Of a DNA stretch of 30,528 bases, positions 1 through 16,480 are shown one piece after another. The notes under the pieces are model-generated. The model saw nothing but the letters and a program-made list of their open reading frames with translations. It was not told the origin of the DNA and ran no database searches. The number at the start of each line of letters is the position of its first letter. Position 1 is the first letter of the stretch. The stretch lies in NCBI GenBank assembly GCA_021732245.1, contig JAKFVJ010000361.1, forward strand, positions 1 through 30,528, read 5' to 3'. This DNA is from Candidatus Obscuribacterales bacterium (GTDB lineage: Bacteria; Cyanobacteriota; Vampirovibrionia; Obscuribacterales; Obscuribacteraceae). Position numbers and translations under genes: made by a program.

Positions 1-700
1 CCACTAGACAATGAATCAGCCAATCCCTCTCGTACGGCTTCCTGAATATCTTCGTCAGTGATTAACTTGTGCTCTATTATTCTCTTCGCTGTCTAAATAT
101 GTCCACCGGTCAAACAGCGATTCAAAGCTTGCTGCACTGCATCAGATATTTCTTTGTTTTCAACTAACTTGAGTTCAATTATTTTTTCAGCATCGTCAAT
201 GCATCCTTCAGACAAGCTTTTGATTAAGCTTTTAACAGCGGCTTCTCGGACCTTTACTGTTTTCAGATTTTCATCTGTGGCAAACTTTCTTTCAAGTAAT
301 TTCTCGACCTCAGTAATAGATCCTTGATATAAGCACTTGGCCAACCTTAGCTGAACGGCTTTTTGAATCTCGCTTGTTTTCAGATTTTCATTTGTGACCA
401 ACTTGCGTTCAATTAGTTTCTCGATAATGTCAATCCGCCCATCTCTAAAGCAATTAACCAAAGCTTGACGCACTGCTCCTTGAATCGCTTCCTCCGGAAC
501 TAACTTGCTCTTTATTATTCTCTCTGCGGTCTCAATGTATTTACCAGACAAGCAAGTAACCAACCCTTGGCGCGTCGCTTCTCGAATGTCTTCTTGCTGC
601 AGATCTTCTTCTGTAACAGAATTGTCCTTAATTATTCTCTCTGCATTGACAATGCTTCCTTTAGACAAACATTCAACCAACAATTTACGGACTTCTCGTT
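1..700 (-). repeat. Intragenic ~35-39 aa two-helix (ankyrin-like) repeats, at least 6 units
   Basis: LVECLSKGSIVNAERIIKDNSV / LVTCLSGKYIETAERIIKSKLV / LVNCFRDGRIDIIEKLIERKLV / LAKCLYQGSITEVEKLLERKFA / LIKSLSEGCIDDAEKIIELKLV / LNRCLTGGHI*TAKRIIEHKLI. Nucleotide echoes ttattattctctctgc near 511 and 630. Confidence 0.8.
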
Positions 701-1619
701 TTTCGGAAGCAAGGGAGTCGTCAAGTGTACGTTTTTCTGTCGAACGGGTACTATCAGTAGCACTTTCCTGTCTCGTATCTAAGATATCATTAGCCATCAG
801 TGATGGTGCTTGCGTTGACGGACTTGCCTTCTCTAAAGACTCAGCATTTTCAATTGCCGACTTTAGATGCTTACCCATCTGCGCATGGCGAGTGCTTAGT
901 GCTGTTACTCCTTGATTGATTCCAGCTAGCGCAAATCCTATTATTCCAAAATCAATTGCTGCATTCTGTATATTCTTCGCTTCCAGTGTGCGCCCATTGA
1001 AAGAAGCATCTGCTACCGCTCCTACTGCCCCGGCCGGCACTCCTGCAACTCCGGCTATCGTCATATCAGACAATGCATTCTTGAATGTCCCTGGCTTTAC
1101 CTTTGCCGCTACCTTCAATCCCGACAATGCTTCTGAACCAGCTCCTAAAAGCCCGAATGTAAGGGCCTGCGAGCCTGCATTGGCTACTCTGCCAGAGAGA
1201 AAATTATTACTTGGGTCCGATTCCGTGAATACCGCCCCATACACGGCTCCTTGTTTGGCGCTTCTCATAAAATGCTGTCCGCATCTTTGCGTAAGTGACA
1301 AAGTATTGGCCGTCTCCACCTGCCGAAATGGGCCCAGCTTTAGCTTGCCCAATAAGTTAAAGTCCACTGCCATCCCTATGGCACCGCCAAATTTTTGTGC
1401 CCAGGAGTCTGTCAAATTACCCTCGGCATTCTTCTCATTTACTATTGAGACATGTGGTAAATGACCTCCAGTGACTAATTGCCCCAAGCCATTCCACAAT
1501 GGAGCAATTACCGCTGATTGCACAAATGCTCTGCCAAAATCCTCGACAATAGTGAGGCAGCTAAGCGGTACTTCCGCTTTGTCTCCCTCTCTAAGTGGCG
1601 CTATTTCTCGATTAATCAA
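93..1619 (-). CDS. Hypothetical protein: hydrophobic Gly/Ala-rich N-terminal module (family B) plus C-terminal ankyrin-like helical repeats; interrupted by an in-frame TAG at 93-95
   Basis: 508 aa ORF with TTG start. N-terminus aligns by eye with 13205..16480. C-terminus has repeated units L..CL..G.I..AE.II...LV. The frame continues past the TAG as TAKRIIEHKLITDEDIQEAVREGLADSLSSG to the window edge. Confidence 0.8.
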   Translation of the reverse strand: MINREIAPLREGDKAEVPLSCLTIVEDFGRAFVQSAVIAPLWNGLGQLVTGGHLPHVSIVNEKNAEGNLTDSWAQKFGGAIGMAVDFNLLGKLKLGPFRQVETANTLSLTQRCGQHFMRSAKQGAVYGAVFTESDPSNNFLSGRVANAGSQALTFGLLGAGSEALSGLKVAAKVKPGTFKNALSDMTIAGVAGVPAGAVGAVADASFNGRTLEAKNIQNAAIDFGIIGFALAGINQGVTALSTRHAQMGKHLKSAIENAESLEKASPSTQAPSLMANDILDTRQESATDSTRSTEKRTLDDSLASEKREVRKLLVECLSKGSIVNAERIIKDNSVTEEDLQQEDIREATRQGLVTCLSGKYIETAERIIKSKLVPEEAIQGAVRQALVNCFRDGRIDIIEKLIERKLVTNENLKTSEIQKAVQLRLAKCLYQGSITEVEKLLERKFATDENLKTVKVREAAVKSLIKSLSEGCIDDAEKIIELKLVENKEISDAVQQALNRCLTGGHI

Positions 1620-1689
1620 CTACTGCCCTGCCCACTTCTGGTCGTGCTGTCTTCCTTCAGAAGATTAATTTATCAATCAAAGACTTACT

Positions 1690-1708
1690 TGTAATTGGGG
1701 AAAATACG
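1690..1708 (-). promoter_or_regulatory. Recurring upstream motif CGTATTTTCCCCAATTACA
   Basis: 76 nt upstream of the start at 1619. Shares an exact 13-mer with 4686..4698 and an exact 14-mer with 11584..11597. Confidence 0.55.
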
Positions 1709-1725
1709 GGTGCTATTTGAAAAGC

Positions 1726-1977
1726 CTAGAATATGAATGGAGTTAATCCTAGCGATGCACGATTTCCCCTTTGAACTAGAAGAGTCTCTGAAACCAGTAG
1801 TGAGTGATGAATCTGGAGTGGTTTACTGCCTATATAAATACCGTCTCTGTCGTGTGAACATATACTTACGTTCTGACTGAAGCCTGGCACGTAACTGGTT
1901 TTGTAGTACTCGGTGCGTAAAAGCCAGAAGCTGTTTACGAGAAGCTCCAGTGCGAAAGAACCTATCTCGCCGGGCAA
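1726..1977 (-). pseudogene. Possible frameshifted C-terminal portion of the PDZ protein
   Basis: ORF starts inside a T5 run (1976-1980) at the 3' end of the PDZ gene. It contains TLLVQRG, echoing SILVQRG of the PDZ domain. No obvious RBS. Confidence 0.3.
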
Positions 1978-2501
1978 AAACCATCAATAGGTGTTCTAAA
2001 TAGAACCCGGGTCATAGTAAAAGACTGGCGGGTTGTGCCTCTCTGAACTAAAATGCTGACCTTTGAATCTACTGGTCCGCGTATTAATTTTACGACTCCG
2101 TTAATAGTGGGGTTAGAGCCGATGGATCTACCGTCCACACTTATTATTTCATCGCCCTTCTGAATACCTGCTGCCTCTGCAACTCCACCTGTTATAAATT
2201 GCATTACAACTATCTTCTTGCCTTGTTTTCCCAACGTCATGCCGACACCAGTGAGTGAACCACCGGTAAGGGGATCACTCACTGTTATCCCGGAGGCAGG
2301 TGATGGCTGTCCATTTCCTGATTGCATTTCGCTGGTATCTGACGTAGAAGACGGCTTTGTATGGTCGTTTCTATTTTGAAAATTAGATGTTGTTGAATGA
2401 CTCTGGTCTTCAGTTTCTGCTGCGTATGCTATTAGCAATGACCCTGAGGAGATTGATAGGATAGTTGTCACCACTAACAGAATGTCTATCTTAAATGGCA
2501 C
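1962..2501 (-). CDS. Secreted PDZ-domain protein
   Basis: Signal-peptide-like N-terminus and Ser/Thr-rich linker. PDZ signature LTGVGMTL...VAEAAGIQKGDEIISVDG...LIRGPVDSKVSILVQRG resembles S41 protease-type PDZ. GTG start with AGAAGGA upstream. Confidence 0.8.
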   Translation of the reverse strand: MPFKIDILLVVTTILSISSGSLLIAYAAETEDQSHSTTSNFQNRNDHTKPSSTSDTSEMQSGNGQPSPASGITVSDPLTGGSLTGVGMTLGKQGKKIVVMQFITGGVAEAAGIQKGDEIISVDGRSIGSNPTINGVVKLIRGPVDSKVSILVQRGTTRQSFTMTRVLFRTPIDGFCPAR

Positions 2502-2555
2502 AATTATTCCTTCTGATTCGCATGTTTAAGTATCTCAATGCTGTTGATCGTGATT

Positions 2556-2941
2556 TCATCTATAGGATCGGTCAATATTTTTCTGGACGGAAATATCAGA
2601 AAGTTTCTCTACAGCGGTTTGTTCATTCGCCAATCGTCCGCGAATCATAACGAATAGCGCCTGATCGTTGTGCGAATTAGTGATAAGTGATTTCGCAAGT
2701 TTGTTGCCTGATGTATCAAGTTCGTACAGTTTGCCATTGCTGATTAACGCGAAAACGGCGTCAGAGCGCAATGCATGTTGCCGACTATAGGTGGCTCGTG
2801 TCAGCTTTACGTCGATTTTTTGTTTGTCATTCGCACAGCACCTTTGTCCACAAGATAACCTGTGAAGCTGGATATGGCGTTCTCTGCGCGAGTCGGAATT
2901 ACTATAAACAGCAAGATCAAAAATAACAGCAATGCTCTCAT
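2556..2941 (-). pseudogene. Frameshifted copy of the small secreted protein at 4153..4521
   Basis: ATG at 2941 reads MRALLLFLILLFIVIPTRAENAISSFTGYLVDKGAVRMTNKKST*. One base is missing in the A-run (plus-strand T-run 2816-2821) relative to the intact copy (AAA AAT ATC). The downstream frame gives IDVKLTRATYSRQHALRSDAVFAL..., matching the paralogue. Confidence 0.85.
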
Positions 2942-2998
2942 GGAAACCCCCTCTCATATTATCCGTAATTGTAATCTTTGGGAACACTTGTGACAGCT
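2581..2998 (-). repeat. Direct repeat copy A (promoter + small secreted gene)
   Basis: Aligns base-by-base with 4160..4578 at roughly 80-85% identity by eye. Offset is 1579 at one end and 1580 at the other, consistent with a 1-bp indel. Confidence 0.9.
2968..2996 (-). promoter_or_regulatory. Sigma70-like promoter, copy A (CTGTCA-N17-TACAAT)
   Basis: -35/-10 hexamers with 17-nt spacer, upstream of GAGAGGGGG RBS and ATG 2941. Conserved in the duplicate. Confidence 0.55.
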
Positions 2999-3013
2999 TG
3001 GACAAAGGGTCAT

Positions 3014-4156
3014 TTATGGTTTTGATTGATCGTTGCTTTTGTTGGGGTTTTCTTTGGTGAAACTCGTGGTCGTTTGGAATTGTTTGCGGGACTCTTGGTC
3101 GTCACGATATAACTGATGCAATGATTGTTGCGCAGTGGCGTGCTTAGCGGTGACCGATTGTAGTGGAGGCACCGCTGGTGGTGTCACTCGTTCGAGATGT
3201 CGATTGTAACCTTGAATACCATCTTCTGGGGCTTGGGCATCCTCGCTGCGTGAGAGCCAATACGGTTCAGACAGGCTTAAAGTGCGGATAAACAACTCTG
3301 CATTGTACCCATTAGTAGACTGTTTATATGGCAGAAAATAACAATCTGAGGCTCCGTGTTCAATCGAGCAAGGCTTCCTCTTATGCACTACCGGTCCACC
3401 TTTATTGTTTGGCGTCAGTGACCACGTAGTTCCGTTCTGAAACTTAGCAACGATGGTGTAAATCCTGTCATCTGGGCGCAATTGTGCTAAGTGATTGGCC
3501 ATTGGGCAAAATGTACGATCAAACGACATTCCGACACGATTAGCCGCGTGGACATTTCCGCATAGAATTAAGAGACGCTTGTTCGGTGCGGATTGTAATT
3601 GTTTTGCCAAAAATTCTGCCATGCTGTTGTCGCGGTCTTGTGGGTTTTTCGCCGAAATAGGATCAAAAGCAATGACCTTGATCGCTGGCATAGTCCGCAA
3701 ATGCTTAATTAAGCTTGCCATCGCAGTACTCCCCCGTCCATCCTGCACTGGACAGTTGAATATCGGCATTGACTTCAATATTTCTTCGTCACCAGTTTTC
3801 ATGTATTCATCAATAAATTTTTGATGATCCCTTGGTAATTCAAGTCCAACGATGAGATCGGAGCCATCATCTGATAGTTGACCTGCAAGACTGTCAACGA
3901 ATTCTGGAATTTCTTTTGAACCGTGGAATTCGCCTATGCAGACTATTCTGCAATCCCTAAGTACTTTAACGATGCTTATTGGTATATGTGTCGAATTCTC
4001 AATTGCAATAGATTGGCCGGGCTTGATGTCTTCTGTTGATACTGGGCTGGCAAAATCAGCTTTAGCATCTACCTGCGTAGTGACAAGAGTGAAGAAACTC
4101 ATGAGTCCAATCAAACAGACGTTGTAGTTGATCGTGCCTTGCATAAGGTTTCTCAA
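3014..4156 (-). CDS. Secreted ChaN/TIKI/EreA-superfamily-like protein with a short C-terminal extension
   Basis: Signal-peptide-like N-terminus. Motifs CIGEFHGSKE, LIVGLELP, DGRGSTAM, VIAFD, RDNSMA, ILCGNVHA. Start either TTG 4156 (overlapping the upstream TGA) or ATG 4144. Confidence 0.65.
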   Translation of the reverse strand: MRNLMQGTINYNVCLIGLMSFFTLVTTQVDAKADFASPVSTEDIKPGQSIAIENSTHIPISIVKVLRDCRIVCIGEFHGSKEIPEFVDSLAGQLSDDGSDLIVGLELPRDHQKFIDEYMKTGDEEILKSMPIFNCPVQDGRGSTAMASLIKHLRTMPAIKVIAFDPISAKNPQDRDNSMAEFLAKQLQSAPNKRLLILCGNVHAANRVGMSFDRTFCPMANHLAQLRPDDRIYTIVAKFQNGTTWSLTPNNKGGPVVHKRKPCSIEHGASDCYFLPYKQSTNGYNAELFIRTLSLSEPYWLSRSEDAQAPEDGIQGYNRHLERVTPPAVPPLQSVTAKHATAQQSLHQLYRDDQESRKQFQTTTSFTKENPNKSNDQSKP

Positions 4157-4521
4157 AAGTTCTGGACGGAAATATCGGAAAGTTGCTCTACTGCGATTTT
4201 TTCATCTGCCAATTGTCCGCGAATCATAACGAATAGCGGCTGATCATTATGGGAATTAGTGATAAGTGATTTCGCAAGTTTATTGCCTGCTGTATCAAGT
4301 TCGTACAGTTTGCCATTGCTGACTAACGCGAAAACCGCGTCAGAGCGCAACGCAAGTTGCCGACTATAGGCGGCTTGTGTCGACTTCATGTCGATATTTT
4401 TGTTGGTCATTCGCACCGCATCTCTGTCCACAAGATAACCTGTGAAACTGGGTATAGCGTTGTCTGCCTTGGCTGGAATTACTATAAACATCAAAATCAA
4501 AGATAGCAGCAAAGCTTTCAT
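4153..4521 (-). CDS. Small secreted hypothetical protein (intact copy)
   Basis: 122 aa with a clear signal peptide MKALLLSLILMFIVIPAKA. RBS GAGAGGA. Stop overlaps the next start. Confidence 0.85.
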   Translation of the reverse strand: MKALLLSLILMFIVIPAKADNAIPSFTGYLVDRDAVRMTNKNIDMKSTQAAYSRQLALRSDAVFALVSNGKLYELDTAGNKLAKSLITNSHNDQPLFVMIRGQLADEKIAVEQLSDISVQNF

Positions 4522-4578
4522 GGAAACGTCCTCTCACATTTTCTGTAATTGTAATCTTTGAGAAGGCTTGTGACAACT
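4160..4578 (-). repeat. Direct repeat copy B (promoter + small secreted gene)
   Basis: Aligns with 2581..2998. Confidence 0.9.
4548..4576 (-). promoter_or_regulatory. Sigma70-like promoter, copy B (TTGTCA-N17-TACAAT)
   Basis: One mismatch each from TTGACA and TATAAT, exact 17-nt spacer, 26 nt upstream of ATG 4521. Confidence 0.65.
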
Positions 4579-4685
4579 GGAGAGAATTCCTGAGCAGTAA
4601 TCGGGCAAACACCCAATGAAACCTTGAGAATCCTGATGGTGAGCTTGTACCAGCAAGGAAGAGATGGAAATATCTTCATTACGTT

Positions 4686-4698
4686 CGTATTTTCCCCA
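4686..4698 (+). promoter_or_regulatory. Recurring upstream motif CGTATTTTCCCCA
   Basis: Exact 13-mer match to 1696..1708 (minus). Lies 55 nt upstream of ATG 4754. Confidence 0.55.
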
Positions 4699-4753
4699 CA
4701 GACTAATAGTTCAGCTAAAGGTACGCTTTTGGGCAGCCATTAGGAATGAGATT

Positions 4754-5692
4754 ATGTCGCATCCTACAGATGAACTCGATCACAAATACGCAAATCCCCT
4801 TGGATTTTGCGCCTCCGCCATTTATGAAACTATGGACTTTTGTGTGCAGTCGGCAATGCACCCGGACAAACGCATAAGGCAAGCCGATGTTCTGACTCAT
4901 GGTCTTATCGTCGGTGGCATTAAGGAAATACCGAACCAAATCCTAAATCACGCTGGGGAAACTGCAACTAAGATGGGTGTTGCTGGAGCCATTGGCGCTG
5001 CCTTCAGTTTACTTATTGATTCGAAGACTAAATTTCTCTCTACAGGTGCCAAATGGCTTGGCTTAGGCATGGGTGTAGGTGCCATTGCGGCCACAGCCGT
5101 CGATCTTCATTCTAAGCCCAAACTTAAATCGGCTCTGGAAGCTGCTTGGAACAAGCCTGAAGCCGTTGCCGCCGGCAAACAGATTGCTGAAGCCGAGTGC
5201 GGACCAGACGGCTTCAATTGGGGGTTGTCCGTACCAGCAACTATCGTCGGCGGTATTGGTGCAAAAGGCGCGATGAAATATTGGTCCTACCGGCAAGCCT
5301 TGTCCAATGGCGCCGAAACGCTCTTAAAACCTGACATCGTAGACGGTCCTACACCCGGACTGGATGAGGCTGGCAGACTTCTTCTGGAGCCCACTGCTCA
5401 CGAATTCTCGATGCTACAGACATTTATTCTCCATGCTCAAGAACTTGTCCCGGGTGTAAAAGTTGACCGGGCGATCTCAATACCTGAGGAGGCATTTGGA
5501 CAACCTGCGGTAATGGCAAAGATTAGGCTTCCTGCCGGCACTACTAGACCGTTCGAGGACGCTTACAAATTGAAACGCTTGGCTGCCCACCTTGCAATAG
5601 ATAACGATTGGCTGTTTGACTGCACGATTGATGGTGAAGAACTTATAGACATGAATGGCACCGCCATACTACTTCACGGATTGAAATACTAA
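4754..5692 (+). CDS. Hypothetical protein: hydrophobic N-terminal module (family A) plus unknown ~120 aa C-terminal domain
   Basis: Start reassigned to ATG 4754 (AGGAATGAG upstream) within ORF 4664..5692. N-terminus aligns with 11667..12983 (RQ...GLI.GGI..I...ETA.K.G...L..AL.A...KQI...G..GFN.GL). Confidence 0.75.
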   Translation: MSHPTDELDHKYANPLGFCASAIYETMDFCVQSAMHPDKRIRQADVLTHGLIVGGIKEIPNQILNHAGETATKMGVAGAIGAAFSLLIDSKTKFLSTGAKWLGLGMGVGAIAATAVDLHSKPKLKSALEAAWNKPEAVAAGKQIAEAECGPDGFNWGLSVPATIVGGIGAKGAMKYWSYRQALSNGAETLLKPDIVDGPTPGLDEAGRLLLEPTAHEFSMLQTFILHAQELVPGVKVDRAISIPEEAFGQPAVMAKIRLPAGTTRPFEDAYKLKRLAAHLAIDNDWLFDCTIDGEELIDMNGTAILLHGLKY

Positions 5693-5819
5693 TACGAAAC
5701 GGCATTGTGCACATAGAGAAAACCCGGTGACGACTCCGCTTGCCGTGGAATTAATTTTCTGTCTACCCTCTGAATGTACAATTTAAGTACTGAATTTCGT
5801 AGGTTACAGCGGAGGAATA

Positions 5820-6272
5820 ATGTTCAGAAATATTCAATTAGTATTGCCGAGCGCTATCTTGGCAGTTTTTGTCCTTTTACCTGAAGCGCTGGCAGAAGAT
5901 GGAACCATGCCGCTTGCAAGAACCAATCATTTGAAGATAGTAAGTCTGCCAAAAGAAGTAAATGCAGGTGAAGACATTATCTTGGAAGCTATTACCAATG
6001 CGAATGCAAAGTGCATTATCACTGTCGCCAGCGGAGATCAGGAACTTATTGGAACTGATCTTGTGCCGAAATTGGCTGACAGTGCCGGTAACGTCAAGTG
6101 GCAATTTAAAGCGACTGACAAAGCAGGCAAATTGGACGTATACGTCCATTCTGTGTCCGGTATAGCTGATGTAGGTGCATCGACTAGTATCAATGTACAG
6201 CCAGCAACGGACGCTGCTGCTGGCAAAGCAGGAAAGTTAATGCTGACGAAGGCGAGATCACGGCAACACTAA
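5820..6272 (+). CDS. Secreted hypothetical protein, probable Ig-like beta domain
   Basis: GGAGGA RBS and signal peptide ending ALA. Beta-rich pattern with LVPKLADSAGNVKWQF. Confidence 0.7.
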   Translation: MFRNIQLVLPSAILAVFVLLPEALAEDGTMPLARTNHLKIVSLPKEVNAGEDIILEAITNANAKCIITVASGDQELIGTDLVPKLADSAGNVKWQFKATDKAGKLDVYVHSVSGIADVGASTSINVQPATDAAAGKAGKLMLTKARSRQH

Positions 6273-6348
6273 AAATCGCAGTTGTCATATATTTGCCCAT
6301 GACTGGATTCATTTGACTGGTTCCTGATACTCGATGTAATGTCAGGTA

Positions 6349-7656
6349 ATGTTGACGATTGATAAATCCACGACTGAACCGCTGGTTGAAGACAGAAGCT
6401 GGAGTGTTTTGCAGTGCACCGCTTTTCGGTTCGTTTGTGCCTACCTCATCTTGTACAACTTGCCATTCCCTCTAGGGGCACTTCCTTTCACCGAGTATCC
6501 TGGCGAAAAGTATCTGGATGTCTGGAAAACAATAATTCCTTGGATAGGCAAGCATATTTTGCACCTCAGCAAAGATATTGCTGTACTGCAAACCGGCAGT
6601 GGTGATACTACTTTCAACTATGTCCAGGTGTTGTGCTTTTTGGCTCTGTCCGCGCTGGTTACCCTGATCTGGTCTATCGCAGATCGCAAGAGAACTAATT
6701 ATATTGAACTACATCAGTGGCTCAGGCTGTATATTCGGTTCGTGTTAGCCAATGCAATGTTTACCTATGGCGCCTGCAAAGTTTTTAACACACAGTTTCC
6801 TGCGCCCTTTTTCTGGAGACTTCTGGAAACCTACGGTGAATCTTCACCAATGGGGCTGTTATGGACGTTTATGGGATCATCGAAGGGATACACGATGTTT
6901 GGGGGGCTGGCTGAAGTATTTGCCGGTTTGCTACTTATTGTTCCGCGGCTGACAGTTTTAGGGGCGCTAGTATGTTTTGCTGTCTTAACGAACATTTTTA
7001 TGCTCAACATGTGCTATGACGTGCCGGTAAAACTGTACTCGTTTCATCTTTTGCTTATGGCAGTTTTCCTGCTGATGCCCGATTTTAAGAAGTTGATAGA
7101 TTTCTTTCTCTTGAATCGTAAAGTCGCACTGTCTAGCGATGCTCAACTGTTTCAGCGTCCCTGGCTTAATCGTGGTTTGCTTGTGGTGCAATTGTGCATC
7201 GGAGGCTATTTTCTTGGTGCGCCACTCTATGCTGGTTATGAATCTGCCAAAACTATGTATAACTCATCTCTAAAGAGTCCCTTTTACGGCATCTGGTTGG
7301 TCGATGAGTTTGAGGTTGATGGAAAAGTGCTTCCACCGCTTGTGACGGATGAGACTTGCTGGCGCCGAGTCGCTTTTGATATTTACGATATGTTTACCGT
7401 TCAGCATGCTGATGGAAGTCGGCAAACATACCACCTCAAGCTCGATGCCAAGAAAGAGACAATTGCTTTGCCAACCGAAATTCCTAACTGGAAAGCGGAG
7501 TTCAGGTATAAGAAGCTAGATGGTCAACGCCTTGTATTAGACGGTGTTTTTTGTAAGCAGAGAATTCATGCCATATTGCATCGGGGTAACAACCAAGATT
7601 TCAGACTTACAAGTCGTGGATTTCATTGGATAAACGAACATCCATTTAACCGTTAG
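6349..7656 (+). CDS. DoxX-like multi-pass membrane protein
   Basis: Multiple TM helices. Motifs YGACKVFNTQFPAP, SPMGLLWTFMGSS, NMCYDVPVKLYS and C-terminal RGFHWINEHPFNR are typical of this extended DoxX-like family. Confidence 0.8.
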   Translation: MLTIDKSTTEPLVEDRSWSVLQCTAFRFVCAYLILYNLPFPLGALPFTEYPGEKYLDVWKTIIPWIGKHILHLSKDIAVLQTGSGDTTFNYVQVLCFLALSALVTLIWSIADRKRTNYIELHQWLRLYIRFVLANAMFTYGACKVFNTQFPAPFFWRLLETYGESSPMGLLWTFMGSSKGYTMFGGLAEVFAGLLLIVPRLTVLGALVCFAVLTNIFMLNMCYDVPVKLYSFHLLLMAVFLLMPDFKKLIDFFLLNRKVALSSDAQLFQRPWLNRGLLVVQLCIGGYFLGAPLYAGYESAKTMYNSSLKSPFYGIWLVDEFEVDGKVLPPLVTDETCWRRVAFDIYDMFTVQHADGSRQTYHLKLDAKKETIALPTEIPNWKAEFRYKKLDGQRLVLDGVFCKQRIHAILHRGNNQDFRLTSRGFHWINEHPFNR

Positions 7657-7667
7657 GAGGTCGTGAC

Positions 7668-16200: not shown

Positions 16201-16480
16201 ATCATTTACCTGGAAAAACGATGCCGGTGGGGTATGTTTTGACAACATAGAAGGTCAACGGCATAAGATTGCCGCCAGAACAGATGCAGTTGCCAGCATT
16301 TACCAGCAGGCGGCGAACTATCTTGTTCAAAATGCTGGATTCAACATGGTAACGATGGGAACTAAGAATAGCGATTTGGATCTTACACGCTGGACCAGTG
16401 CCGGAAAAATGAAGTGTAAGCGTCCAAATGACTACACAGGAATTACTGACGCTGATGAACAAGTTCTTTTGTCGAATTAA
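13205..16480 (+). CDS. Large mosaic protein: family-B hydrophobic N-terminus, HExxH zincin-like motif, 11-residue helical repeats, C-terminal CCQH domain
   Basis: 1091 aa ORF. GHELEHL at 14180-14200 followed by EELRA. Repeat region ~14843-15470. C-terminal RFLPRDDVRGMFLGQYTYCCQHP...GEILGQSFTW...CFDNIEG. Confidence 0.85.
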   Translation: MTSSPERHSFAETGSEGRRHLEGSDAPRPWDAEWFAGNVINPFLNASVVDVCNVAIESGKLLSGTADKKSDAIDYAAALPVTKSNLGSTEWWLQNISAGLGCAVTYGLAGGFTGGILRNVAGAFRLERTSLVVSRFAANNRVAQVLGVGVYDSLRPLAEGDTRAGNGISGAGSFAVLELGNSLVAKSRFGIGTGLVRALGRASVGVCAADTHHFLANSISHKSDTEEPEVKYENRVTGAAMNVVLPMVHNGLTRAADLGNAFMGRGTTLDGYVQKNGLLNRSSTFDNLVRNNPLVRVKVTDDTIAKALHTENTILVPKLVSLDVLGHELEHLSKYKDKAIRNSTDAGMNGVRKLLRENRFAEAEEAYIAIRMAEELRARTTEATIQKELGAKKNSQDMHPGLIAEDPFYRRIFATEFDQMNSDRRVNEHDYISDRLKELVAKNDVKGTIDYLFPSMPAFSKEILHDSVMAWTQREGRRGQKRGDNASLLLGLKGDVFTKLVSKALVDKCWQLHPHRDAGEWMKSLREFANESVDLSQFEPAFEKYNAVQERALNDYEQIDAPARERYRNLTETASSEYHAIYEPASKQYHAIRESAEMQQKVTCRQARAEYEEIKNQAWEQYRQVFDPAFKQYMQTKQQAREKLDPTNKDSREAYKAIKSQAWQQLQLVSEPALIQYETLRKQAIKKLEPIHDRAWKTSLKETEQAWKQYEQISDAPNKKYCAIEDEASKEYHAIIDPAYEQYRAVRDLASAEFFSSIRPLSLETDLDFAKVYEDLRQEYSFDNMEAEDRNASPYDPRWTNYVRLVNTFGNQSEIWLSKQAEKQISLHDATYWLPLKPAFELKGLGNFLMANRDRNRVHLGLIAKCWPKLSLEERKLSFDKLLEESINKTYVNAKAPHFAREAAKWGTDERDYPELERLYLRSQSVPSPFPLGQVWTESGLVGRFLPRDDVRGMFLGQYTYCCQHPDGEGSGCADYGQESPNAGFFVVENENTGEILGQSFTWKNDAGGVCFDNIEGQRHKIAARTDAVASIYQQAANYLVQNAGFNMVTMGTKNSDLDLTRWTSAGKMKCKRPNDYTGITDADEQVLLSN
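14843..15470 (+). repeat. Intragenic 11-aa (33-nt) amphipathic helical repeats
   Basis: Units such as ASSEYHAIYEP, ASKQYHAIRES, AWEQYRQVFDP, ASKEYHAIIDP, AYEQYRAVRDL. Confidence 0.75.

Follow-up and report, generated by a model that had tools for sequence, protein, structure and literature searches.

Do two large genes on opposite strands of one contig begin with the same protein domain, and what might such a domain do for the unlike proteins that follow it? The question is raised by a 30,528-nucleotide stretch of DNA from Candidatus Obscuribacterales bacterium (GCA_021732245.1, contig JAKFVJ010000361.1; the whole stretch is called the window here). In it, a sequence-only reading had noticed by eye that the genes at 93..1619 and 13205..16480 share a hydrophobic N-terminus and carry entirely different cargos. 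From this it had proposed two interspersed families of delivery modules as a dispersed, lineage-specific effector arsenal. Profile comparisons show that both genes open with one homologous, undescribed helical domain, about 210-270 residues in size. We refer to the gene-1619 type (protein P0001) as A-type and to the gene-13205 type (P0002) as B-type, and the two genes are arranged as follows.

1..1619, minus strand: 5' part of the A-type gene, about 539 codons, running off the window start; the TAG at 93-95 is not its true end.
885..1508, minus strand: the shared helical domain in its A-type form, spanning residues ~38-245 (hmmsearch, six-frame search, hhalign).
1..689, minus strand: predicted helical repeats, each unit 34-39 residues long and marked by the motif R/KxxLxxCL...AExII (repeat spacing; no Pfam Ank or HEAT match).
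13205..16480, plus strand: complete B-type gene encoding 1,091 residues (identical to the 1,091-residue representative P0007).
13256..14113, plus strand: B-type copy of the shared N-terminal domain, with six long helices predicted after a disordered leader (HMM match, AlphaFold2).
14096..14668, plus strand: conserved HExxH module with a gluzincin-like motif, HELEH at 14183-14197 (sequence conservation).
14822..15484, plus strand: region of 11-residue periodicity, with an xYxAI-type motif at multiples of 11 (repeat spacing).
15785..16477, plus strand: C-terminal CCQH domain, with CCQH at residue 962, of no named family (recurrence among representatives).

Compared pairwise by BLASTP, the two N-termini give an E-value of 0.36, with 26% identity over 123 residues, which is not significant, and the alignment made by eye therefore needed profiles. 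When a profile of two gene-1619-type sequences (A2) is aligned by hhalign with a large alignment of 81 diverse B-type sequences from an exhaustive search, the match reaches 97.4%, with an E-value of 1.1e-11 and a score of 78.2 over 202 columns. Against B sequences from the own genome, the A-type N-terminus scores 95.5-95.9% (E 6e-9 to 2e-8, about 200 columns), including 95.9% for A2 against five own-genome B paralogues (E 5.8e-9, 201 columns). Significance beyond Gly/Ala composition had been set beforehand as the test of the relationship, and three controls bear on it. Forty column shuffles of A2 that kept the composition exactly gave at most 11.7% and a score of 26.7; A2 reversed gave 0.4% against the B profile; and two further N-terminal families of the window, D and C, which are equally Gly/Ala-rich, gave 0.7% and 1.6% against the same profile. 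Given that all three are negative, composition does not account for the match and the homology is real. In addition, the 81-sequence B profile matches A-type residues 38-245 by hmmsearch (E 2.7e-13), and a six-frame search of the genome with the B-type hidden Markov model (HMM) matches window positions 885-1508 on the minus strand (E 1.8e-11). At the level of sequence profiles, homology of the N-termini of 93..1619(-) and 13205..16480(+) beyond composition is thus confirmed. That the resemblance is no real relationship and a mere by-product of common Gly/Ala-rich composition has a negligible probability: the pairwise BLASTP result would favor it, but it is excluded by the controls, with 97.4% (E 1e-11) standing against at most 11.7% in the shuffles, other Gly/Ala-rich N-termini of the window scoring below 2%, HMM E-values of 1e-11 to 1e-13, and a cargo that is common to both branches, as described below.

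The B profile also recognizes 14 of 18 A-type relatives from other genera, none of which (0/18) carries an HExxH motif. Judged from these matches, A and B are therefore two branches of one superfamily and not two unrelated families. The own assembly (G000, of which the window is contig C1) is fragmented, with 3.77 Mb in 519 contigs, 47% GC and 78% completeness; G001, a near-identical genome of the same genus, is 97% complete. The RpoB of G000 shares 87% identity with that of a 'Candidatus Obscuribacterales' metagenome-assembled genome and no more than 68% with those of photosynthetic cyanobacteria, which places the organism among the non-photosynthetic cyanobacteria of the class Vampirovibrionia (Melainabacteria). 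A census of open reading frames (ORFs) in the own genome separates four N-terminal families. Family A comprises the 1619 gene and a copy on C401; family B comprises the 13205 gene and copies on C7, C142, C116 and C2, with C252, C290 and C390 added later; family C comprises 8979..10727 and a copy on C69; and family D comprises 11667..12983, 4754..5692 and copies on C6, C73 and C135. The "family A" of the sequence-only reading corresponds to families C and D here, and its view that the two genes in question form a second, separate family agrees with the low scores of C and D given above.

The B profile finds 284 representatives (clusters at 50% identity) among 1.84 billion proteins, with lengths of 128-2,013 residues. 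Apart from fragment-like entries, all matches begin no later than residue ~90, and the domain is always N-terminal. In whole genomes, the B profile is matched in 13 of 24 genomes of the same family and in all 3 of a sister family, and in none of 14 that represent other families of the class; counted with the own genome, 17 of 41 relatives carry it. The A profile finds the domain in 69 of the 107 genomes of Obscuribacterales, as many as 14 times in a single genome; the genera g20, g22, g38 and g49 are rich in matches, and g16 and g5 are without any. The domain is absent from all 150 genomes of other Cyanobacteriota searched, drawn from 29 families. Within the own genome, the six-frame search with the B-type HMM yields 10 domain matches on 9 contigs. 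A related-locus search of the genome_contigs set with P0002 itself as the query returned no relatives. Profile searches thus show the superfamily to be confined to the order Obscuribacterales in the genomes searched, and the proposal that the module is dispersed and lineage-specific has held up. Public sequencing runs that contain this stretch come from drinking-water, aquatic, wastewater and biofilter metagenomes.

AlphaFold2, run on 81 sequences, models the B-type N-domain with a predicted local distance difference test (pLDDT) value of 87.3 and a predicted template modeling score of 0.82. The predicted layout is a disordered polar leader of ~30 residues followed by six helices at residues 32-62, 89-123, 126-154, 163-186, 193-220 and 228-262. 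Over the whole alignment, charged residues make up 9-16% of the helices and 23-46% of most loops; Gly, Ala and Ser together account for about 40% of the helices, within which polar residues (Asn, Gln, Asp, Glu) are conserved. The highest Kyte-Doolittle average over 19 residues is 1.24 for P0002 and 1.41 for P0001, the usual threshold for a transmembrane (TM) segment being about 1.6, and the loops show no alternating Lys/Arg bias. The domain thus falls outside the classic description of a polytopic inner-membrane protein in both hydropathy (<1.6) and positive-inside loop bias. It matches no Pfam, NCBIfam or PADLOC family, and a Foldseek search against the PDB returned nothing at E<=1e-3. The wide VIA-align search gives a best Z of 7.4 (ECF S-component, TIM22), which lies within the background of helical bundles and does not imply a novel fold; nearly all of these weak structural neighbors are membrane helix bundles. 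Good matches in the AlphaFold DB and ESM Atlas are limited to the N-termini of further proteins from Melainabacteria.

What follows the domain differs between the branches: the A branch lacks HExxH, and in the B branch the next part is usually an HExxH...E module resembling zinc peptidases. The HExxH motif of the 13205 gene had been taken as variable cargo; it belongs instead to a conserved second module, which lies ~23 residues past the N-domain in 74 of the 131 family-B representatives with a sufficient tail. In 45 sequences, H327, E328, H331 and E375 are invariant, and R371 and Y409 are nearly so. The modeled module is a small domain (pLDDT 88.8) in which HExxH lies on a helix after a small beta-sheet, with the invariant Glu 44 residues downstream. 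By its conserved residues, HExxH...E is a gluzincin-type zinc-metallopeptidase signature. Similarly, eCIS_core/DUF4157 (PF13699), M78/IrrE-ImmA, SprT/Wss1-like proteins and the minigluzincins carry HExxH on a helix after a small beta-sheet, but matches of the B-type module to the zincin modules of modular toxins are weak and scattered, and structural scores stay within background. Among 45 members searched against Pfam, eCIS_core was matched in 2 at E 0.12, with single hits to M91, SprT and M78 at E 0.03-0.08. The PDB profile search was empty, Foldseek placed ArdC, selecase and abylysin on top, all at E>1 and within background, and the fold search gave PprI at Z 5.4, also within background. 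No described peptidase family is therefore convincingly matched by the module in the Pfam, PDB profile and fold searches.

Two other features noted in the 13205 gene proved sound. The 11-residue periodicity of its repeats is real, as judged from the xYxAI-type spacing, and the CCQH domain recurs in 19 of 150 representatives, including P0007 and the G000 paralogue on C2, and no C-terminal domain is more frequent in the B branch. By language-model features, the nearest Atlas clusters to the CCQH domain are unnamed proteins of 195-341 residues, the few taxon-labeled members of which include phages and Bacillota. Pfam, NCBIfam and PADLOC searches return nothing for the full proteins.

Beyond these parts, the superfamily carries a wide choice of cargo. 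In 55 B-branch representatives, we found PolyA_pol with an RNA-binding domain (9), HD (7) and dCTP-deaminase-like domains (5), and further isoamylase with CBM48, GH15 and LRR. In AlphaFold DB clusters the N-domain is fused to C39-like peptidase, LRR and PNPLA (patatin-like) domains, and in the ESM Atlas to LOG/TIGR00730. A-type N-domains are fused to a GGDEF diguanylate cyclase (L114, G066:C43) and to a patatin-like phospholipase (L112, G102:C55), and a G000 paralogue carries LRV repeats. The fused nucleotidyltransferases are extra copies, as G021 has two fusions together with a 495-residue enzyme of canonical size; genomes without such fusions keep a canonical copy of 479-501 residues too. 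An N-domain and PolyA_pol fusion in the same genome (G021:C136:7524-9228) is apparently split into overlapping frames of 245 and 760 residues, which could be a frameshift or an assembly error.

Cargo also passes between the branches. In the 1,947-residue representative P0011, a B-type N-domain (65% identity to the C142 paralogue) and an HExxH motif precede A-type repeats and cargo; the latter (repeats plus roughly 1,100 residues) is 53% identical to that of A-type proteins over 1,141 residues. This composite sequence is direct evidence of cargo exchange between the A and B branches, and the two N-domain types are therefore interchangeable carriers. For the 1619 and 13205 genes themselves, the earlier description of the cargos as entirely different stands, as BLASTP of their C-terminal regions gives only E 0.42-1.6, which is not significant, and the CCQH-domain profile matches an A-type paralogue at E 0.039 only, so that a cargo common to the two genes is not established. 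It does not extend to the families as wholes, since P0011 joins a B-type N-domain to A-type cargo.

The A-type gene is longer than the window suggests. The in-frame TAG at window positions 93-95 on the minus strand is unique to this assembly. It is GAG (Glu) in G001, where the frame continues to window base 1; three runs, each of a different study, have contigs that extend beyond the window start, and in these a C at position 95 likewise yields GAG. Given the agreement of G001 with three public runs, the TAG is not the end of the gene; a rare variant, or a consensus or assembly error of the metagenome-assembled genome, has probably created a false gene end here. What had been read as a whole gene of 508 residues at 93..1619 is therefore a fragment; the G001 orthologue has 1,422 residues, and the 3' end of the A-type gene (its last 457 residues) lies on G000 contig C352 at 99.8% identity. 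The full-length protein consists of the N-domain, nine predicted helical repeats of 34-39 residues and ~770 residues without a named family, for which the ESM Atlas offers a weak lead to GNAT acetyltransferases. The repeats had been called ankyrin-like. Ankyrin repeats have a unit of about 33 residues and a TPLH motif, in contrast to the 34-39 residues and R/KxxLxxCL...AExII motif here, and no Pfam Ank family is matched at E<=0.1 (P0001) or E<=0.05 (P0155, P0156), nor is HEAT at E<=0.05-0.1. The ankyrin label was rejected on these grounds.

Genes of the two branches also share an upstream sequence, CGTATTTTCCCCA, which occurs in the window at four places.

1696..1708, minus strand: motif CGTATTTTCCCCA, with 76 nucleotides from its 3' end to the A-type start codon.
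13131..13143, plus strand: degenerate copy with 2 mismatches, which begins 74 and ends 61 nucleotides before the B-type start.
4686-4698, plus strand: motif, with 55 nucleotides from its end to the start of the D gene 4754..5692.
11422-11434, plus strand: motif, with 232 nucleotides from its end to the start of the D gene 11667..12983.

Fifteen copies are present genome-wide at <=1 mismatch, and the motif ends 55-82 nucleotides before the start codon of most genes that it precedes (64-76 nucleotides for A copies and 69 for the B copy on C7). Contigs other than the window that contain it are C7, C401, C236, C99, C428, C329 and C40, and other large unnamed genes with the motif 64-81 nucleotides upstream include a 1,355-residue ORF on C236 and the paralogue pair on C99 and C428. 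The genes it precedes are a candidate regulon of effector-like genes. The third copy in the window lies within a listed ORF, 4664-5692 on the plus strand, and 4754 (MSHPTDELDH...) is the best start codon behind it, so that the true start of this D-type gene is probably 4754 and not the listed 4664. Family genes in the own genome are monocistronic. No immunity genes were seen downstream: the B-type gene of the window, the copies on C2, C7 and C116, and the A-type end on C352 all have a convergent gene behind them, and a small co-directional ORF of immunity type is missing from every G000 copy with an assembled 3' end.

What, then, might the domain do? We give an even chance to the domain serving accessory effector-like proteins as a module for membrane targeting or insertion, with the peptidase of the B branch perhaps freeing the cargo. 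The six-helix domain would take its cargo to, and perhaps across, a membrane, and in the B branch the adjacent HExxH peptidase may cut that cargo free. A membrane-active role is favored because the helices are low in charge and rich in Gly, Ala and Ser, and because the weak structural neighbors are membrane bundles. As for an exit machine, the only candidate seen would be a chromosomal cluster resembling a type IV secretion system (T4SS) that is conserved across the order.

G001:C2:478000-497900 (L127), also G000:C120:1862-5680: T4SS-like cluster (marker searches).

Secretion markers were searched in five genomes (G000, G001, G017, G021 and G025), and all five, from four genera and two families, have this cluster with its VirB4/TraC-like and VirD4-like pair. 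Its genes encode a 1,059-residue protein without a family, DUF2225, a VirB4/TraC-like ATPase of 937 residues that matches P-loop_TraG and AAA_10, a VirD4-like protein of 1,007 residues, a 956-residue protein without a family, and Replic_Relax. Given the Replic_Relax gene, the cluster may be conjugative. In a related organism, Vampirovibrio chlorellavorus, a conjugative-type T4SS has been proposed, from genomic inference, to deliver hydrolytic enzymes into Chlorella (PMC4451040).

A second VirD4-like gene, for a TraG/VirD4 coupling protein, lies about 6 kb beyond the right end of the window in G001 (L125, G001:C1:489000-508600); near it are genes for a MobA/VirD2-like relaxase and an AbiEi/AbiEii pair, and a DprA-like gene. 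As an exporter of effectors it was rejected, being part of a relaxase/AbiE mobilization module. The metal-efflux and effector-like island may border an integrated mobilizable element.

Several points weigh against a role of the domain in delivery across a membrane. Markers of type III (T3SS; FHIPEP) and type VI (T6SS; TssC) secretion, WXG100 and phage or contractile sheath proteins were not found in the five genomes, including the 97%-complete G001, two-partner (TPS) and type V secretion (T5SS) not being part of that search. Canonical VirB4 (PF03135) and TrbL were likewise without a match in these genomes. The T4SS-like cluster is also present in G017, of genus g16, in which none of six genomes has the domain family. 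In known T4SS substrates, the signal is C-terminal or internal and not N-terminal; the layout of this family, with a constant N-terminal part and variable C-termini, is the opposite of known T4SS effector layouts. The family proteins carry no recognized class of secretion signal. Furthermore, GGDEF, LOG, nucleotidyltransferase and dCTP deaminase cargos act on cytoplasmic substrates, with six helices both termini would lie on one side of a membrane, the hydrophobicity is under the classic TM threshold with no positive-inside pattern, and no solved translocation or pore-forming domain matches the N-domain above background. Of a co-occurring secretion apparatus, the classical markers searched were not found, and the one candidate is the conserved T4SS-like cluster, which extends to a genus without the family. 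Of the proposed arsenal, a real, dispersed and lineage-specific module with shuffled cargo stands, and a delivery function is unproven, with no T3SS, T6SS, WXG100 or sheath markers and no immunity genes.

It is possible, although we lean against it, that the domain is a tether in or on the producer's own inner membrane that holds enzymes, signaling domains and repeat sensors in the producer's own cytoplasm, with no export at all. Much of the cargo is of the cytoplasmic signaling or conflict type (GGDEF, LOG/SLOG-like, dCTP-deaminase-like, HD, nucleotidyltransferase, patatin, LRR and helical repeats), and an even number of helices, together with the lack of a signal peptide, of a co-varying secretion system and of immunity genes, is what a tether would predict. 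In a variant of this explanation, the family could belong to a repertoire for stress, defense or abortive infection, with either the HExxH peptidase or the membrane domain itself as executioner. However, there is no PADLOC match, the family is limited to one order whereas defense genes are usually scattered by transfer, and isoamylase and GH15, which degrade starch or glycogen, and C39-like peptidase are ill-suited to defense; starch-degrading and LRR/C39-type cargo also counts against a tether. The hydrophobicity is also below that of stable TM helices and lacks a positive-inside bias, and about 10 matches here and more than 10 in some genomes, with a shared promoter-like motif, look like a deployed arsenal.

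It is improbable that the domain has no membrane role and is a packed, small-residue-rich bundle acting as a soluble adaptor, oligomerization or regulatory domain. The compact, high-confidence all-alpha model, a hydrophobicity under the TM range and the polar residues conserved within helices are all compatible with such a scaffold, but 9-16% charge in helices of 30 residues is unusually low for a soluble surface, and the structural neighbors, though weak, are almost all membrane proteins.

Comparison with known systems helps to place a membrane-targeting carrier of this kind. As in the polymorphic toxins (LXG with type VII secretion (T7SS), Rhs-PAAR with T6SS, CdiA with TPS, MafB and MuF), a constant N-terminal module precedes variable, recombining C-termini in many paralogues, and the cargo includes patatin, nucleotidyltransferase or HD, and peptidase domains; here, cargo moves between N-domain subtypes. 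However, there is no relation in sequence and no convincing one in fold (ESM Atlas rows for PT-VENN, DUF637 and RHS have TM scores of 0.32-0.37), no immunity gene lies downstream, T6SS, T7SS and sheath markers are missing, many cargos are repeats or metabolic enzymes, and the family occurs in one order only. Effectors with N-terminal transmembrane domains (TMDs), namely T6SS prePAAR/TMD effectors with Eag chaperones and the chlamydial Inc proteins of T3SS, similarly place helices of intermediate hydrophobicity before a functional domain, and in these this property avoids insertion into the producer's membrane before export. They have 1-3 TM segments or a bilobed hairpin, in contrast to the six helices of 24-35 residues and the conserved bundle of ~230 residues here, where neither T6SS nor T3SS markers, including TssC, nor a PAAR domain in Pfam searches is found. 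Finally, the B-branch order of helical domain, HExxH and cargo resembles exotoxins (diphtheria toxin T domain, the delivery region and CPD of large clostridial toxins, MARTX with CPD), in which a Gly/Ala-rich helical region adjoins a protease and cargo. Against this likeness, solved translocation domains give no structural match (best Z 7.4, background), the protease is zincin-like HExxH...E and not a cysteine protease, no receptor-binding domain is evident, and self-translocation is wholly inferred. The architecture is of a known kind, that of polymorphic modular effectors; what sets the family apart is its carrier domain with a peptidase partner, together with the lack of immunity genes and of a classical injection system.

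Non-photosynthetic relatives of the cyanobacteria are almost all uncultured, with an ecology inferred from genomes, and the Obscuribacterales have so far been regarded as free-living. A bolder, and in our view unlikely, extension is lineage-specific delivery that needs no classical injection machine, in which the N-domain, often with a zinc-peptidase release module, carries dozens of swappable enzymes into prey or host cells. If this were true, phospholipases, nucleotide- or tRNA-modifying enzymes, starch-degrading enzymes and repeat proteins would be the cargos, targets could be, for example, the protists and algae of water biofilms, and this would point to predation or host manipulation as a way of life akin to that of Vampirovibrio. 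What is in hand is a large, order-specific modular superfamily that has so far gone unannotated, with 284 clusters and without a Pfam, NCBIfam or clear PDB counterpart. Should the front end prove to be a tether, it would be a membrane-anchor domain of a new type, serving an unusual variety of outputs. If it is a membrane-delivery device, it would mark the Obscuribacterales as antagonists or symbionts of other cells and would add a new type of trafficking domain, with a built-in peptidase, to the repertoire of polymorphic effectors. Under either reading the domain merits definition as a family, and the upstream motif offers a starting point for learning when these genes are turned on.

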